Sequence record: PQ471516.1
Length of the DNA: 64,000 nucleotides
Strand: one strand, 5' to 3'
Source: Escherichia phage Turkey5
Part shown: in pieces, positions 2,667 through 13,564 of the stretch
Layout of the letters: each line of letters opens with the position of its first letter
How positions within the stretch are numbered: position 1 is the stretch's first letter
Position numbers and translations under genes: made by a program
The notes under the pieces: model-generated
Database searches by the model: none
The model's input: the letters and a program-made list of their open reading frames with translations, nothing else
Told to the model about the DNA's origin: nothing

Positions 2667-2746
2667 CAGGACGGGGAACGAAATAAGTAACTTCCCGTTA
2701 AGTAGCCCAGGAGTAAGGCACACGAAAAACTCCCCTGATAAAATAG
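2667..2746 (+). ncRNA. repeated structured leader/sRNA element, copy 1
   Basis: CAGGACGGGGAACGAAATAAGTAACTTCCCGTTAAGTAGCCCAGGAGTAAGGC..CTCCCCTGATAAAATAG; no ORF; copies at 5967 and 13487. Confidence 0.45.
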
Positions 2747-2747
2747 T

Positions 2748-2775
2748 TTGACAATTGTTTTTAAAAGCGTATAAT
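2748..2775 (+). promoter_or_regulatory. early promoter
   Basis: TTGACA 2748-16-TATAAT 2770. Confidence 0.75.
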
Positions 2776-2806
2776 ACTTACATCGATACTGAATGAGGGT
2801 TACAAA

Positions 2807-3418
2807 ATGAAAACTATCACTACTACTACTTTTGTTATGGCTTTTTCTGAACTGACCGCAGAACAACAAGCGGCGGCTATCGAACTGGTTCGGGAACGTG
2901 AAAAAAACTTAAACGATGATTATTTTTCTGAAAGTGAAATTGAATACTATAAAGAAACAGTACTACCGGAATATGGCATAGATGAAGCTGAATTGCAATT
3001 CAGTGGTTTTTGGTCCCAGGGTGACGGTGCATCAATCAGTACTGACCACGTTGACGCAGTGAAGTTTTTACGCAAGATTAAAGCATTAACTAAGTATCGC
3101 TCGATCCGTCACCTGCTGAATGAAGATGATTTGGCGATGAGTGTAAAGCGTTCTCACTCCCACTACTCGCATGAGAATACTGTAAGCGGGTACATTGAAT
3201 CGGCTTACACTGATTTAACCGCAAAACAAGAAACGTTAGTTAATGAGCTTGAGGAACTACTCACTGAAACTATTCGTGAATTATCCCGCAAGTTGTACCG
3301 TGATTTAGAGAATGCATATGAGGATCAATTCACTACTGAAAACATTACGGCACTGATTGAGGGTAACGAATATCAATTCAATGTCATTGATGGTGTAGTA
3401 GAATCAATCGAATATTAA
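2807..3418 (+). CDS. hypothetical protein (203 aa)
   Basis: GAGGG RBS, ATG 2807; largest ORF of module I; no domain recognised. Confidence 0.85.
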   Translation: MKTITTTTFVMAFSELTAEQQAAAIELVREREKNLNDDYFSESEIEYYKETVLPEYGIDEAELQFSGFWSQGDGASISTDHVDAVKFLRKIKALTKYRSIRHLLNEDDLAMSVKRSHSHYSHENTVSGYIESAYTDLTAKQETLVNELEELLTETIRELSRKLYRDLENAYEDQFTTENITALIEGNEYQFNVIDGVVESIEY

Positions 3419-3430
3419 TTTAAAAAGTAC

Positions 3431-3490
3431 TTGCAAACTAAGTTTAAAGGCGTATAATACTTTATATCGAGGCGGGGAATGGTTCCCCGC
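3431..3490 (+). promoter_or_regulatory. early promoter + 5'UTR hairpin cassette
   Basis: TTGCAA 3431, TATAAT 3453, hairpin GCGGGGAATGGTTCCCCGC 3472-3490. Confidence 0.8.
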
Positions 3491-3511
3491 TCACACTAAA
3501 AGGGCAACAAA

Positions 3512-3778
3512 ATGAAAACTTTAAATATCACAACTGCACATCAATTGGTTCGGGATGCGATGGATCATGTGCAAGATTTCTTCCCTGATGTAAGTGTAGT
3601 GACTTATGAAAAAGGTACTTGGACTTATTCAACAATCAACGGTTATGAGCCTGATTTTGATGATCTGGAAGAAATGGAATTTAATTTTGATCTGCTGAAT
3701 GATGCCGCCCGTGAAGTGGAAAACGATGTTCAATACATTGATGGAGTAGTCGCACCTGATGCAGTAAAAGGATTATAA
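3512..3778 (+). CDS. hypothetical acidic protein (88 aa)
   Basis: ORF after cassette. Confidence 0.8.
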   Translation: MKTLNITTAHQLVRDAMDHVQDFFPDVSVVTYEKGTWTYSTINGYEPDFDDLEEMEFNFDLLNDAAREVENDVQYIDGVVAPDAVKGL

Positions 3779-3792
3779 AATTTAAAAAGTAC

Positions 3793-3852
3793 TTGCATTG
3801 TAGTTAGATTAACGTATAATACTTTATATCGAGGCGGGGAGTGGTTCCCCGC
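3793..3852 (+). promoter_or_regulatory. early promoter + 5'UTR hairpin cassette
   Basis: TTGCAT 3793, TATAAT 3815, hairpin 3834-3852. Confidence 0.8.
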
Positions 3853-3870
3853 TCAAACGAGGATTAAAAA

Positions 3871-4110
3871 ATGGCTAGTACTAAAACTTACAACGGACAC
3901 AAAAACAAAACTCATTGGAATGTTTCCTTATGGATTAATAACGGTGAGTCATTGTATCGGCTTGCTCAAAGTTGCATTGCACAAAGTAAAACTAAAGATA
4001 TTGCTGCGGAATGTATGTACCGCAGATTAAAAGCCAACGGTACTACAACCACGCCAGACGGCTTTAAGTATAGCACTACTGCGATCCGTGCTGCGATGGT
4101 TGGAATGTAA
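3871..4110 (+). CDS. hypothetical protein, paralog of 1471..1710
   Basis: GAGGA RBS; family match to 1471..1710. Confidence 0.8.
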   Translation: MASTKTYNGHKNKTHWNVSLWINNGESLYRLAQSCIAQSKTKDIAAECMYRRLKANGTTTTPDGFKYSTTAIRAAMVGM

Positions 4111-4129
4111 TATTCAGTACTGAATCAAT

Positions 4130-4149
4130 GGCGGGGAATGGTTCCCGCC
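4130..4149 (+). promoter_or_regulatory. cassette-type hairpin without promoter (attenuator/processing site?)
   Basis: GGCGGGGAATGGTTCCCGCC followed by TTTATT; no -35/-10 upstream. Confidence 0.4.
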
Positions 4150-4168
4150 TTTATTGAGGGTTTATCTA

Positions 4169-4447
4169 ATGAGTAAAGTAATTAACTATACAGTACTAAG
4201 CAAGTCATTGTCTATAAGTGAGTGCACCAATGGTTTTTGGCTGTACGACGAAACGCGTGGCATGAATTTAGCTATGCAGGAGAAAACTGCTGATGCGGCA
4301 TATCTTAAAGCACTGGAATACTACCAGGAACGTTTGAAGGAAGTAGAAAACAATTATCAAAATTTAAAAGAGAAAGTAGATCATTTCGTCGGTCAATTCG
4401 TTGACGATGACGGGCACTACTGCGACCGTTGCGGATCTTACAGTTAA
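4169..4447 (+). CDS. hypothetical protein (92 aa)
   Basis: GAGGG RBS 8 nt before ATG 4169 (track start 4154 is TTG). Confidence 0.7.
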   Translation: MSKVINYTVLSKSLSISECTNGFWLYDETRGMNLAMQEKTADAAYLKALEYYQERLKEVENNYQNLKEKVDHFVGQFVDDDGHYCDRCGSYS

Positions 4448-4464
4448 GTACTGAGGATTATCTA

Positions 4465-4668
4465 ATGAGTGATTTAATTGAACGTATCAAAGAGCTTGAA
4501 GAAAAAGAATTGCAGTTGATCGGCTTACAGAATAAAATCTATCATGATTTGGGGAGTTTTATCAATGCCTGGGATAGTGGCGATCCTGATGCGTTACCTG
4601 CTAACCGCACGGCAATGATCAATGATGTGCGTGGTGTCTTTGATTATGTTTTAAAGCAATTAAATTAA
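4465..4668 (+). CDS. hypothetical protein (67 aa)
   Basis: GAGGA RBS then ATG 4465; same TTATCTAATGAGT start context as 4169. Confidence 0.7.
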   Translation: MSDLIERIKELEEKELQLIGLQNKIYHDLGSFINAWDSGDPDALPANRTAMINDVRGVFDYVLKQLN

Positions 4669-4677
4669 AAAAAGTAC

Positions 4678-12511: not shown

Positions 12512-12519
12512 AAAAGTAC

Positions 12520-12579
12520 TGGACAATAGATTATAGTACTGTATAATAGTTTACATGAAGGGGAGAAATGATTCTCCCC
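12520..12579 (+). promoter_or_regulatory. early promoter + 5'UTR hairpin cassette
   Basis: TGGACA 12520-16-TATAAT 12542, hairpin 12560-12579. Confidence 0.75.
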
Positions 12580-12596
12580 ACTAAGAGGAAAGAAAA

Positions 12597-12809
12597 ATGC
12601 AAGGTCAACTAATCGTTCGTAAATGGTCTGATACTAACGAAAAACCGTGGGATGTACAATACATCGCCCCCAATGGTGAATCCAGATATCAACCAGGTGT
12701 AACGCATAGTACTGAGCAATTCGCCGCCGCTCATCGTGAACGTCTGTTACAATCAATGCAGTTCGGTTCCGGTGAAAAATTCATTCAGGATCATTGGCTG
12801 AAAGATTAA
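12597..12809 (+). CDS. hypothetical protein (70 aa)
   Basis: GAGGA RBS. Confidence 0.75.
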   Translation: MQGQLIVRKWSDTNEKPWDVQYIAPNGESRYQPGVTHSTEQFAAAHRERLLQSMQFGSGEKFIQDHWLKD

Positions 12810-12816
12810 AAAGTAC

Positions 12817-12875
12817 TTGCAATTAGTTTTCAGTACTGTATAATGTTTTACATGAAGGGGAGAATAGTTCTCCCC
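12817..12875 (+). promoter_or_regulatory. early promoter + 5'UTR hairpin cassette
   Basis: TTGCAA 12817, TGTATAAT, hairpin GGGGAGAATAGTTCTCCCC 12857-12875. Confidence 0.8.
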
Positions 12876-12894
12876 ACTACTAGGAAACAGCATT

Positions 12895-12984
12895 ATGCAC
12901 ATGAATCCGTTTATAGTAGTAATTGCAATCATGATGGCTGTACAGGCCGTGTTAGAATACTTAAGCAAAGCAGGAGTTATCTAA
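12895..12984 (+). CDS. hydrophobic micro-protein (29 aa, TM-like)
   Basis: AGGAAA RBS; MHMNPFIVVIAIMMAVQAVLEYL...; first of three coupled micro-ORFs. Confidence 0.45.
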   Translation: MHMNPFIVVIAIMMAVQAVLEYLSKAGVI

Positions 12985-13155
12985 ATGATCCAGGTAGAAT
13001 TATCAGTACTCAAAGATCTGTTTTATCGGTTAGGCACTACTGGAGAATACCCGAAAGGTGATACCGCTAAACTATACACTGCATTGGATGTATGGCAACG
13101 TAACGAACTGGCTAACGCCTGGCGTAAAGGTAAATCAGAGGGGATTGCAGCATGA
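12985..13155 (+). CDS. small protein (56 aa)
   Basis: TAAATG junction; preferred over alternative-frame track ORF 12843..13061, which starts in the promoter. Confidence 0.5.
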   Translation: MIQVELSVLKDLFYRLGTTGEYPKGDTAKLYTALDVWQRNELANAWRKGKSEGIAA

Positions 13156-13301
13156 AAGAATTCTTATTCGAAGTAGTGTTTAACCGCGTAGGTGGAAACC
13201 AATTAATTCGCTCAAGTGGTCACAATGTTAATCAAGCGTGGACTAACTTAAAACGAATGTACCCGGACGCGATTACATATCGTAACCCGAAAGAAGTTTA
13301 A
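13152..13301 (+). CDS. small protein (49 aa)
   Basis: ATGA overlap with 12985..13155. Confidence 0.5.
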   Translation: MKEFLFEVVFNRVGGNQLIRSSGHNVNQAWTNLKRMYPDAITYRNPKEV

Positions 13302-13317
13302 AAAGAATTGAAAAAAA

Positions 13318-13341
13318 GGATTGACTCAGGTCAGTCCTTTT
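13318..13341 (+). terminator. hairpin terminator overlapping a -35
   Basis: GGATTGAC-TCAG-GTCAGTCC + TTTT, preceded by A7. Confidence 0.6.
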
Positions 13342-13393
13342 GCTATTATATATGCATTGAAACAATCTAGCCCACAGGGTGCATAAATGTATC
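13321..13393 (+). ncRNA. candidate ORF-less mini transcription unit (CCCA-NN-GGGTGC core)
   Basis: TTGACT 13321-17-TATTAT 13344; core TAGCCCACAGGGTGCATAAATGTATC 13368-13393. Confidence 0.4.
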
Positions 13394-13401
13394 TATTATA
13401 T

Positions 13402-13409
13402 GCTGGTGG
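13402..13409 (+). other. Chi site GCTGGTGG
   Basis: exact octamer just after mini unit. Confidence 0.9.
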
Positions 13410-13449
13410 CTAGTACTATCAAGTACTGAAAACTATTTTTAAAAAGTAC

Positions 13450-13477
13450 TTGCAAAGTATCACGATAAGCGTATAAT
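13450..13477 (+). promoter_or_regulatory. early promoter driving repeated leader element
   Basis: TTGCAA 13450, TATAAT 13472. Confidence 0.75.
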
Positions 13478-13486
13478 GTTTTACAT

Positions 13487-13564
13487 CAGGACGGGGAACG
13501 AAACAAGTAACCCCGTTAAGTAGTCCAGGAGTAAGACATACGAAAACCTCCCCTGATAAAATAG
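13487..13564 (+). ncRNA. repeated structured leader/sRNA element, copy 3
   Basis: near-identical to 2667-2746; followed at once by promoter 13566. Confidence 0.45.

Follow-up and report, generated by a model that had tools for sequence, protein, structure and literature searches.

A covariation-supported pseudoknot RNA domain behind early promoters of a jumbo coliphage and its counterpart between the T7 A1 and A2 promoters

Aptamers of the preQ1-I type are compact H-type pseudoknots of ~35 nt with an A-rich third loop, while ToxI-type antitoxin RNAs form a ~36-nt pseudoknot, phage 'pseudo-ToxI' RNAs being decoys against abortive infection. For T7, Dunn and Studier are said to have placed, in 1983, an RNase III site (R0.3) that separates the leader from the 0.3 mRNA. 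Phage HK022 makes the put RNA, a structured RNA of ~70 nt that follows an early phage promoter, is transcribed by the host polymerase and works protein-free (PMC9378689), its antitermination acting through the beta' zinc-binding domain; putL begins at +3 of the PL transcript, spans ~73 nt and contains a minor-groove triplex (PMC9378689). The tisB +42 mRNA carries an H-type pseudoknot at its extreme 5' end, followed by single-stranded RNA, and this pseudoknot provides S1-dependent ribosome standby (PMC7708055). The element described below recalls each of these RNAs in size, fold or position, and its closest counterpart is the T7 leader.

Our analysis covered a window of 64 kb from an Asteriusvirus-type jumbo coliphage, in which three copies of the element all lie within the early region. 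This region is a terminal repeat in a 96%-identical relative and therefore probably enters the cell ahead of the rest of the DNA. An earlier note on this DNA had pointed to an 80-nt string with one near-unchanged and one diverged repeat, and all three were recovered: the string matches exactly at 2667-2746, the second copy (13485-13564) is identical to the first at 75 of 82 aligned positions, and the third (5965-~6040) agrees over the first 15 nt and at 27 of the 38 positions in the core. Each locus carries a copy of the same conserved RNA domain. On the + strand there are three occurrences of the 16-mer CATCAGGACGGGGAAC, with 0.17 expected (up to 3 mismatches) and none of 100 shuffles giving three, and a covariance model of the core, run with filters off, found exactly these three sites in the 64 kb (45-57 bits, E 1e-11 to 1e-15). 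All copies carry UAAGUAG-N-C and then UAAG-N'-C-NN-A-C/U-GAAA, in this order.

The core of ~37 nt reads UAAGUAG-N-C ... stem ... UAAG-N'-C-NN-ACGAAAA ... stem, and covariation supports its folding as an H-type pseudoknot. It consists of an invariant UAAGUA flank, a 3-bp helix X (G-N-C/G-N'-C) and a helix P2 of 4-5 bp that begins within the helix X loop, with an invariant UAA junction and an A-rich third loop (R-N-A-C/U-G-A-A-A), the whole domain being closed by a helix, P0, that begins at +1. Copy 1 (2665..2739, + strand) is closed by pairing of 2665-2670 with 2734-2739 and continues with hairpin P1 (2671-2677 with 2692-2698, + strand) and the core (2699-2733, + strand), in which UAAGUAG occupies 2699-2705, helix X pairs 2705-2707 with 2717-2719 (G-C-C/G-G-C), P2 pairs 2710-2713 with 2730-2733 (GGAG/CUCC) and the A-rich loop lies at 2720-2729. 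Copy 2 (13485..13557, + strand) has P0 at 13485-13490 with 13552-13557, its core at 13517-13551, helix X at 13523-13525 with 13535-13537 (G-U-C/G-A-C, compensatory relative to copy 1) and P2 at 13528-13531 with 13548-13551 (GGAG/CUCC). Copy 3 (5965..6026, + strand) does without P1; its P0 pairs 5967-5973 with 6020-6026 with one A-A mismatch, and its core (5982-6016, + strand) holds helix X at 5988-5990 with 6000-6002 (G-A-C/G-U-C) and P2 at 5993-5996 with 6013-6016 (CCAG/CUGG). The middle pair of helix X is thereby C-G, U-A and A-U in copies 1, 2 and 3, respectively. As in copy 3, P1 is missing and the core retained in UPEC06. Note that the pairings proposed earlier fared unequally: GGAG/CUCC is real and covaries to CCAG/CUGG, CCUG/CAGG or CUUG/CAAG in other copies, and closure by 5' CAGG and 3' CCUG is plausible, relatives forming the closing helix from other sequences (GACGG/CCGUC in UPEC06, CGGC/GCCG in Munch, GACG/CGUC in vB_Ec-M-J), while copy 3 lacks the ACGGGGAA/UUCCCGU hairpin that copies 1 and 2 possess. 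Single-sequence folding, which the earlier note had suggested as a check, beat the shuffles only moderately in copy 1 (z -2.2) and copy 2 (z -2.5) and did not beat them in copy 3 (z -0.65), so that the case for the structure stands on comparative data rather than on folding energy.

These comparative data come from 37 distinct sequences, in an alignment built with a model from which helix X had been left out. Helix X is paired in 99% of cases and its middle pair, the pair with the highest mutual information in the alignment, takes all four Watson-Crick forms (AU 26, UA 5, CG 4, GC 1), while P2 is 96% paired with two-sided changes at 4 of its 5 pairs, and its outer pair is G-U in 15 sequences, which is compatible only with the transcribed strand. 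The observed covariation score was reached by none of 500 shuffles, pairing collapsed when the 3' partners were slid by 1-3 columns, and pattern matches without the second helix, a natural control, seldom paired N with N'. In addition, unrelated phage families share ~20 invariant unpaired positions. The covariation suggested as a check is thus present in helices X and P2, and the earlier view that early transcripts begin with a structured RNA element is upheld. What had been missed are the G-N-C/G-N'-C helix of the pseudoknot, the invariant UAAGUAG and ACGAAAA blocks and, chiefly, the homology with T7.

In T7, the interval between promoters A1 and A2 contains a homologue of the core. Copy 3 as query matched T7-group phages between A1 (498) and A2 (626), and the T7 leader in this interval (nt ~535-590) has the same blocks, the same covarying helices and the same place, with a second promoter; the T7 A1 transcript also has a 5' hairpin at its start, as do the jumbo-phage leaders. 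In T7-type copies the longer P1 is replaced by a 4-bp hairpin that has an RGUCAA loop and stands immediately upstream; these copies also show no clear closing helix and lie at +54 rather than +18 to +35. The T7 version as query retrieved 488 phage records, T7-like, and the copy 1 version 44 records, Justusliebigvirus among them; the element is also present in a Vequintavirinae phage and in Munch-like and Erwinia jumbo phages, with UPEC06, Munch and Hallingskeid among the carriers, and it is conserved between phage families whose flanking sequences are unrelated. It was found only in virulent phages: 5,426 E. coli genomes and the PLSDB plasmids have no copy, and species-representative genomes gave none except on one likely phage contig. 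T5, SP6, gh-1 and HK022 have none either. The suggested Rfam/Infernal search assigned the element to no family; among 4227 models (including preQ1, SAM-II, guanidine-III and fluoride), none reached its gathering threshold in the window, and at E up to 10 there were two noise matches near copy 1 and none in T7 nt 440-960. For T7 ~535-590, no function, name or Rfam family was found in a literature search that covered few of the older subscription papers. Mimicry of a host RNA, such as a type III antitoxin or an rRNA segment, was considered and set aside, with no similar sequence in E. coli genomes or plasmids; the best rRNA likeness, 13 of 15 positions with 16S near 871, was equalled in 17-28 of 200 shuffles and scored just 11.7 bits (E 0.19) with the model.

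Each copy starts at a predicted +1 located 7 nt past the -10 hexamer of a consensus sigma-70 promoter, a spacing adopted by analogy with T7 A1. For copy 1, this promoter is at 2630..2657 (+ strand, TTGCAA-16-TATAAT; predicted +1 A2665) and is followed by a second one at 2748..2775 (+ strand, consensus TTGACA-16-TATAAT, 12/12) serving ORF 2807-3418; for copy 2, it is at 13450..13477 (+ strand; predicted +1 A13485), and a second consensus promoter at 13566..13593 (+ strand, 12/12) precedes a generic 5' hairpin and ORF 13646-13921. Copies 1 and 2 therefore lie between two promoters, as had been claimed. The third copy is indeed the 5'UTR of gene 6073: behind a terminator-like hairpin (5859-5882), a promoter at 5930..5957 (+ strand, TTGACA-16-TAGAAT) has its predicted +1 at A5965, and the copy is followed by ~50 nt of A/U-rich, weakly structured RNA up to the SD and AUG of an ORF (6073..6552, + strand, 159 aa, phrog_27871) that ends before another terminator-like hairpin (6574-6595). 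A weak promoter-like site (6014..6042, + strand, TGGACA-17-TAAACT, 9/12) overlaps the 3' end of copy 3 and may represent the second promoter in degenerate form. All three copies thus sit on the transcribed strand, no more than ~100 nt downstream of an early promoter of the sigma-70 type and with a promoter after them, the one behind copy 3 being this weak 9/12 site. More generally, the start of an early transcript made by the host polymerase is never further from the element than about 20-90 nt, and 63 of 65 distinct member loci have a second sigma-70-like promoter within 120 nt downstream, for which the chance rate, roughly estimated and not computed, is ~6%. The genes behind the copies are unrelated to one another, and the phrog_27871 orthologues of Munch and Hallingskeid likewise stand behind an element copy, a linkage kept over three jumbo-phage lineages at 35-40% protein identity.

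The earlier note suggested that nothing but this RNA comes from the first promoter. Copies 1 and 2 have no terminator-like site behind them, and in none of the three copies does an intrinsic terminator separate the element from the promoter or gene that comes next, so the element is the 5' end of a read-through mRNA and not a separately terminated sRNA; the layout of copies 1 and 2 is also that of the T7 A1-A2 tandem promoters, and therefore transcripts continue into the gene. Given that the element is almost always followed by a second promoter, there may nevertheless be something right in the hunch that the upstream promoter serves mainly to make this RNA.

As the best explanation, we tentatively propose an RNA domain that binds some conserved host factor and does so independently of the downstream gene, a reading that we consider quite possible without giving it the greater part of our belief. 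The host sigma-70 RNA polymerase would transcribe the domain from +1 of strong early promoters, and once folded it would act as RNA regardless of the gene behind, offering a host component that is conserved throughout the Enterobacterales a sequence-specific site for docking, or a decoy; in each tandem pair, making this RNA would be the main task of the upstream promoter, and the downstream one would give most of the mRNA. Candidate partners are RNA polymerase, the ribosome (through protein S1 or its 30S subunit) and a termination, decay or defence factor. The homology, the covarying helices, the restriction to virulent phages, the unrelated downstream genes, the frequent second promoter, the helix from +1 and a T7 leader reportedly cut off the 0.3 mRNA by RNase III all argue for this host-factor domain. 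Against it, the few hundred copies estimated per infected cell would be too few to titrate the abundant S1, the second promoter of copy 3 is weak, the linkage to one gene in three jumbo lineages could equally reflect a cis role for that gene, and the boxA also present in the T7-like leader fits a cis role in transcription. Such a role, comparable to HK022 put, would make the element a modifier that binds its own transcribing host polymerase or helps load Nus factors, which we regard as rather unlikely; that it would suppress pausing, backtracking and termination, giving processive early transcription and, in T7, processive transcription-driven genome entry, seems unlikely to the same degree. 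The constant closeness to a transcript start, as for putL, and the short, promoter-free distance of 24-30 nt from the element to the boxA downstream of it (loci L021 and L050) speak for a polymerase modifier, but the element follows only the first promoter, whereas boxA lies downstream of all three T7 promoters, as a modifier should, and the jumbo phage has short transcription units, each with its own promoter, and no boxA. Moreover, put has two long stem-loops instead of an H-type pseudoknot and belongs to a temperate lambdoid phage, and nothing in the HK022 genome exceeded 9.8 bits (E 0.7, filters off), so the element is not homologous to put.

A docking or standby role, in which the 5' pseudoknot would bind S1, keep the 30S subunit on the A/U-rich leader and raise translation of the first phage mRNAs, is improbable in our view, even though S1 binds H-type pseudoknots, tisB joins a 5'-terminal pseudoknot to a single-stranded stretch (PMC7708055), copy 3 has ~50 nt of such RNA before its SD/AUG and the gene pairing persists in three jumbo lineages. 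The tisB sequence is unrelated and its ribosome-binding site is buried, whereas the sites behind our copies are weakly structured and not strongly sequestered in the predicted folds; an element-free mRNA almost always comes from the next promoter, and the T7 element lies ~340 nt upstream of the 0.3 start with the reported RNase III cut between. We would give still less credit to an elaborated generic 5' stem-loop that shields early mRNA from 5'-end-dependent decay without a specific partner: 31 of 40 + strand early promoters (1-20.5 kb) do have a stable 5' hairpin behind them, and P1 of copies 1 and 2 has the same position and the same ACGGGG-type arm, but plain stabilisers are free in loop sequence while ~20 unpaired positions are invariant here, copy 3 and UPEC06 keep the core without P1, and the T7 leader is cut from its mRNA. 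The switch idea, in which the 3' CUCCCCUG would exchange one pairing partner for another, possibly in response to a small ligand, and so control downstream expression, is very improbable: CUCC-GGAG and CCUGAU-AUCAGG are adjacent and form side by side in the minimum-energy fold, and therefore are not alternatives, and the supposedly SD-like CCAGGAG is one helix arm whose counterpart is not SD-like in copy 3 or T7. Compactness (~35 nt), a short hairpin with the 3' end pairing into its loop, an A-rich third loop or tail and conserved unpaired bases are indeed small-aptamer traits of the preQ1-I kind, and CUCCCC could in principle pair with GGGGA (2673-2677); however, that alternative is missing in T7-type copies, helix X has just 3 bp, no Rfam match appeared at E up to 10, and neither a terminator nor SD sequestration is coupled to the element as an expression platform. 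Hardly credible at all is a DNA-level element, either a UP-like or upstream activating site that serves the second promoter or simply a side effect of the duplication of promoter cassettes, as might be suggested by the nearly constant downstream promoter, the T7 A-tract 6 nt upstream of the A2 -35 hexamer and the duplication of cassettes in the early region; the distance to the next -35 varies from ~2 to ~50 nt, families with unrelated flanks conserve the element, and Watson-Crick covariation in two helices with G-U pairs on one strand is unexpected for a duplex DNA site.

Altogether, the host-factor domain may, somewhat more speculatively, represent a class of phage RNA that has so far gone unrecognised. 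When T7 and many other virulent enterobacterial phages infect, this aptamer-like pseudoknot would be transcribed before any other RNA; it would move between unrelated families as a promoter-plus-RNA cassette, and would either capture or neutralise a conserved host factor (e.g., a termination, RNA-decay or defence protein) or re-programme the polymerase that makes it. Phage RNA decoys against an abortive-infection system offer a precedent, and ToxI is likewise a pseudoknot of about this size; the present element differs in not being tandemly repeated and in having no related host sequence in E. coli, plasmids or species representatives, and mimicry of a similar host RNA is therefore unsupported. 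As a separate observation, promoter cassettes are heavily duplicated across the early region of the window.

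We demonstrate that the element constitutes the 5′ end of read-through early transcripts, where it forms a conserved pseudoknotted RNA domain. The 80-nt string quoted in the earlier note was recovered at 2667-2746, as claimed, together with the near-unchanged second copy (13485-13564, 91.5% identity to copy 1) and the diverged third copy (5965 to ~6040), which agrees with it over the opening 15 nt and at 71% of core positions. The opening 16-mer occurs three times in the window against 0.17 expected, a count reached in 0 of 100 shuffles, and a covariance model of the core, applied with filters off to the 64 kb, returned exactly these three copies and no further diverged ones. 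In every copy the start lies 7 nt beyond a -10 hexamer, with a predicted RNA 5′ end AUCAGGACGGGG, the +1 position being the one that the spacing of T7 A1 would give. Copies 1 and 2 are followed by second promoters that match the consensus at 12/12 positions, and copy 3, which leads into ORF 6073-6552, is located between terminator-like hairpins at 5859-5882 and 6574-6595. The earlier note had suggested that the first promoter makes this RNA alone, had likened the alternative pairings to a switch and had described CCAGGAG as Shine-Dalgarno-like (SD-like). A terminator-like site is absent after copies 1 and 2, and support was lacking for a separately terminated sRNA, for a two-state switch and for an SD-like role of CCAGGAG. 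A 1-kb query around copy 1 displayed 95-98% identity to Asteriusvirus jumbo coliphages (PBECO4, 121Q, G17, Turkey3 and others), and in the annotated relative vB_Ec-M-J a direct terminal repeat (1-21,525) takes in all three homologous copies. No tRNA was found in the window. Over its first ~20 kb, the + strand carries ~40 near-consensus sigma-70 promoters, all of them placed before a small ORF.

The suggestion that the element is structured was borne out by covariation across homologues, which supports three helices (P2, P1 and X). P2 consists of 4-5 bp around a 16-17-nt loop and changes in sequence from GGAG/CUCC (copies 1 and 2) to CCAG/CUGG (copy 3), CCUG/CAGG (T7) and CUUG/CAAG elsewhere, while remaining paired in 93-96% of the sequences, with two-sided changes at 4 of 5 pairs. 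The P1 hairpin, directly 5′ of UAAGUAG, is longer in copies 1 and 2, missing from copy 3 and UPEC06, and covaries in T7-like phages (CCGG, CCAG/CUGG, CCAC/GUGG, GCUG/GCGG). In helix X, the N of UAGUAG-N-C pairs with the N′ of UAAG-N′-C, and since the 5′ arm of P2 falls in the interval that separates the arms of X, the fold is an H-type pseudoknot, with loops of 1-2 nt, (A)UAA and R-N-A-C/U-G-A-A-A-R-N. Among 37 distinct sequences the N/N′ pair is A-U in 26, U-A in 5, C-G in 4 and G-C in 1, counts that overstate independent events as the alignment holds mostly closely related T7-like sequences; the lone exception is a weak match and probably a false one. Compensatory changes have arisen repeatedly, in distinct lineages (within this genome, copy 1 versus copy 2; L121 versus the near-identical L003; L012 and L126; L021 and L050).

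Note that helix X lay outside the model that built the alignment A3, and that N and N′ were unconstrained in the text patterns; they are the top mutual-information pair of the alignment. The adjoining G-C and C-G pairs are invariant, their G and C having been fixed in the pattern that retrieved most members. By hand count, N and N′ are complementary in only 5 of 42 sequences that fit the pattern but have no P2 and are rejected by the model. The covariation score exceeded those of 500/500 shuffles, and pairing collapses when the 3′ partners are shifted by 1-3 columns. The G-U pairs, of which 15 occur at the outer position of P2, are compatible with the + strand only, and the constraint therefore acts on the promoter-strand RNA. 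Members other than the T7 group have the entire domain bracketed by a closing helix with its start at or near +1, which reads AUCAGG/CCUGAU in copies 1 and 2, CAGG-CG/CG-CCUG in copy 3, GACGG/CCGUC in UPEC06 and CGGC/GCCG in Munch. Folding of the whole leader is significant (z -3.4 for T7 and -4.1 for Munch); that of the isolated core is not, as would be expected of a pseudoknot, which goes beyond what nested-structure folding represents.

Our results also showed that the element is homologous to the T7 A1 leader. BLAST with copy 3 gave an unexpected match in Yersinia and Escherichia T7-group phages at ~nt 553-587, and in phiA1122 and T7 the matching segment is located between the annotated E. 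coli promoters A1 (498) and A2 (626); the T7 fragment in question is printed in PMC11863960. The T7 version was found in 488 phage records, with Enterobacterales hosts except for a few oddly labelled ones, and the copy 1 version in 44 records, including ~145-kb Justusliebigvirus phages such as outra. Diverged copies were identified in UPEC06 (Vequintavirinae), Salmonella phage Munch and Erwinia phage Hallingskeid, and text-pattern scans of the IMG/VR and JGI metagenomes added T7-like contigs; divergent metagenomic families that matched a text pattern but failed the model (L065/L092/L097, L052/L056 and similar) were left out of the members. The element has passed among Autographiviridae, two groups of ~145-kb myoviruses and three lineages of jumbo phages. 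As a separate observation, comparison of outra 1670-1909 with window 1432-1710 places a copy 1-type element with both promoters in outra, and the early ORF behind it opens MAKSKMFLGHKNKTHWNV, as does the window ORF from ATG 1443; this common opening suggests that whole early promoter-gene cassettes have been exchanged between the two phage groups, which are unrelated.

As far as searched, the element is restricted to virulent enterobacterial phages. No similar sequence was found in E. coli genomes (n=5,426) and plasmids, and the strict pattern gave ten matches in species-representative bacterial genomes, with the helices missing save in L040, likely a phage contig. The covariance model of the core (R1) had no match in the initial 30 kb of T5, in the initial 3 kb of SP6 or of Pseudomonas phage gh-1, in HK022 or in the rrnH operon. 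Rfam gave no match for the element and none at the gathering threshold anywhere in the window. Searching the literature for sequence strings and for the topic returned only papers giving the T7 promoter fragment; the older subscription literature lay mostly outside their coverage and may hold an earlier description of the T7 segment. This A1-A2 segment is the closest relative found, and no name, family or function was found for it. HK022 put, preQ1-I, ToxI and the 5′ pseudoknot of tisB resemble the element in function or topology and are not relatives; the model scan of HK022, the Rfam comparison and the search for a counterpart in host genomes and plasmids were all negative.

In most members the element sits behind the upstream promoter of a tandem pair. 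A sigma-70-like promoter follows the core within 120 nt in 63 of 65 distinct member loci, with ~6% expected by chance as a rough estimate for a loose pattern. The genes behind the copies differ, being phrog_5162, phrog_14947 and phrog_27871 in the window and 0.3-type in T7-like phages. ORF 6073-6552 has orthologues (35-40% identity) behind the Munch and Hallingskeid copies (L046 3758-4345, L048 6172-6798), all with a long central A/E/K-rich helix and a conserved C-terminal block RVxVxxDGxEYxxPxxGN...SG..R.EFI. Its C-terminus is reminiscent of the H-NS DNA-binding domain, and autoregulation by an RNA- or DNA-binding product was considered; Pfam, PDB sequence search and Foldseek of the AlphaFold model (pLDDT 74, moderate) gave no assignment, and the idea was dropped. 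A peptide reading was rejected as well, the overlapping ORFs being short, with TTG/GTG starts and none common to the copies, and UAA and UAG lying inside the invariant block. In T7-like phages, boxA lies farther down the same leader, past all promoters, and in L021 and L050, contigs with a single promoter, 24-30 nt separate it from the element upstream. As a boxA partner in the jumbo phage, GCTCTTTAACAA (≤2 mismatches) occurs at chance frequency, with none downstream of the copies on the transcribed strand. Mimicry of rRNA was also discarded: copy 3 resembles 16S 'UAAGUCGACCGCCUG', and its 13/15 match on rrnH, not bettered on either strand, was equalled by 17-28 of 200 shuffled queries.

The invariant blocks among the 23 sequences of alignment A2 are U-A-A-G-U-A-G, C, U-A-A-G, C and A-C-G-A-A-A-A. 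Some 20 unpaired positions are invariant across phage families with unrelated flanks and genes, which points to sequence-specific recognition by a partner that would be conserved in Enterobacterales. We tentatively favour a gene-independent docking or decoy RNA as candidate role, since the domain is present only in the first promoter's transcript, a 'clean' promoter comes next and, in T7, RNase III later cuts the leader away. A put-like action on polymerase, for which HK022 put offers the functional analogue, appears doubtful, and a putative S1/30S standby site, at which the leader would receive the ribosome, is unlikely. That the domain is a mere stabiliser of the transcript is improbable. 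A putative riboswitch, with preQ1-I as topological analogue, is very improbable. Lastly, an element acting at the DNA level is hardly credible: the gap from the P2 end to the next -35 varies from ~2 nt (T7 type) up to ~50 nt, which makes a fixed DNA geometry unlikely.

Few phages have been studied as closely as T7, whose A1 promoter is in standard use in transcription biochemistry. The A1-A2 segment appears to hold a strongly conserved pseudoknot, for which neither an Rfam family nor a describing paper was found. The unpaired bases of the element are more conserved than the neighbouring proteins, and this, together with its movement between phage groups, implies that a function directed at the host at the very onset of infection is under strong selection. 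If the partner is polymerase, the ribosome or a defence factor, a new RNA-based mechanism of takeover would be gained. The element would also serve synthetic biology as a portable part.

Other repeated signals were observed in the early region. A stable 5′ hairpin (e.g., AUCGAGAGGGGGAAAUGGUUCUCCC), resembling the T7 A1 start AUCGAGAGGGA...UCCC, lies within 40 nt of the start at 31 of 40 consensus early promoters (window 1-20500, + strand), and promoter, hairpin and SD form a repeated cassette before the small ORFs there. A second repeat family is a ~45-nt motif, CTA(A/G)CCCAyNGGGTGCa.AA.TGTA.CTAT, with a small CCC/GGG hairpin and no Rfam match, at 2411-2583 (both strands), 5030-5112 (-), 11242-11320 (+), 250-334 (-), 13350-13400 (+) and 18900-18960 (+). 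Five sites have a strong promoter 15-25 nt upstream of the motif, with an extended -10 (TGGCATAAT) in four of these promoters and a plain TATAAT in one (334-307). At 2411-2583, two motif promoters 170 bp apart converge on a stretch devoid of ORFs, so that complementary RNAs would be made. Leftward promoters (2583-2555, with an extended -10, and 13422-13395, without) that fire into the ~45-nt motif are arranged back to back with the upstream promoters of copies 1 and 2. A Chi sequence (GCTGGTGG) at 13403-13410 (+), just upstream of the copy 2 promoter and kept in vB_Ec-M-J, falls in the -10/-35 spacer of the leftward promoter 13422-13395. Finally, long intergenic repeats of 85-88% identity (9558-9704 versus 16606-16752; 13300-13401 versus 18867-18968) carry a 12-bp terminator-like hairpin (AAAGTGGTTGACTCCGGTCAGCCATTTT and AAAAGGATTGACTCAGGTCAGTCCTTTT; 9571-9598, 13314-13341), and since the TTGACT -35 hexamer of a TATTAT promoter sits inside this hairpin, terminator and promoter overlap.
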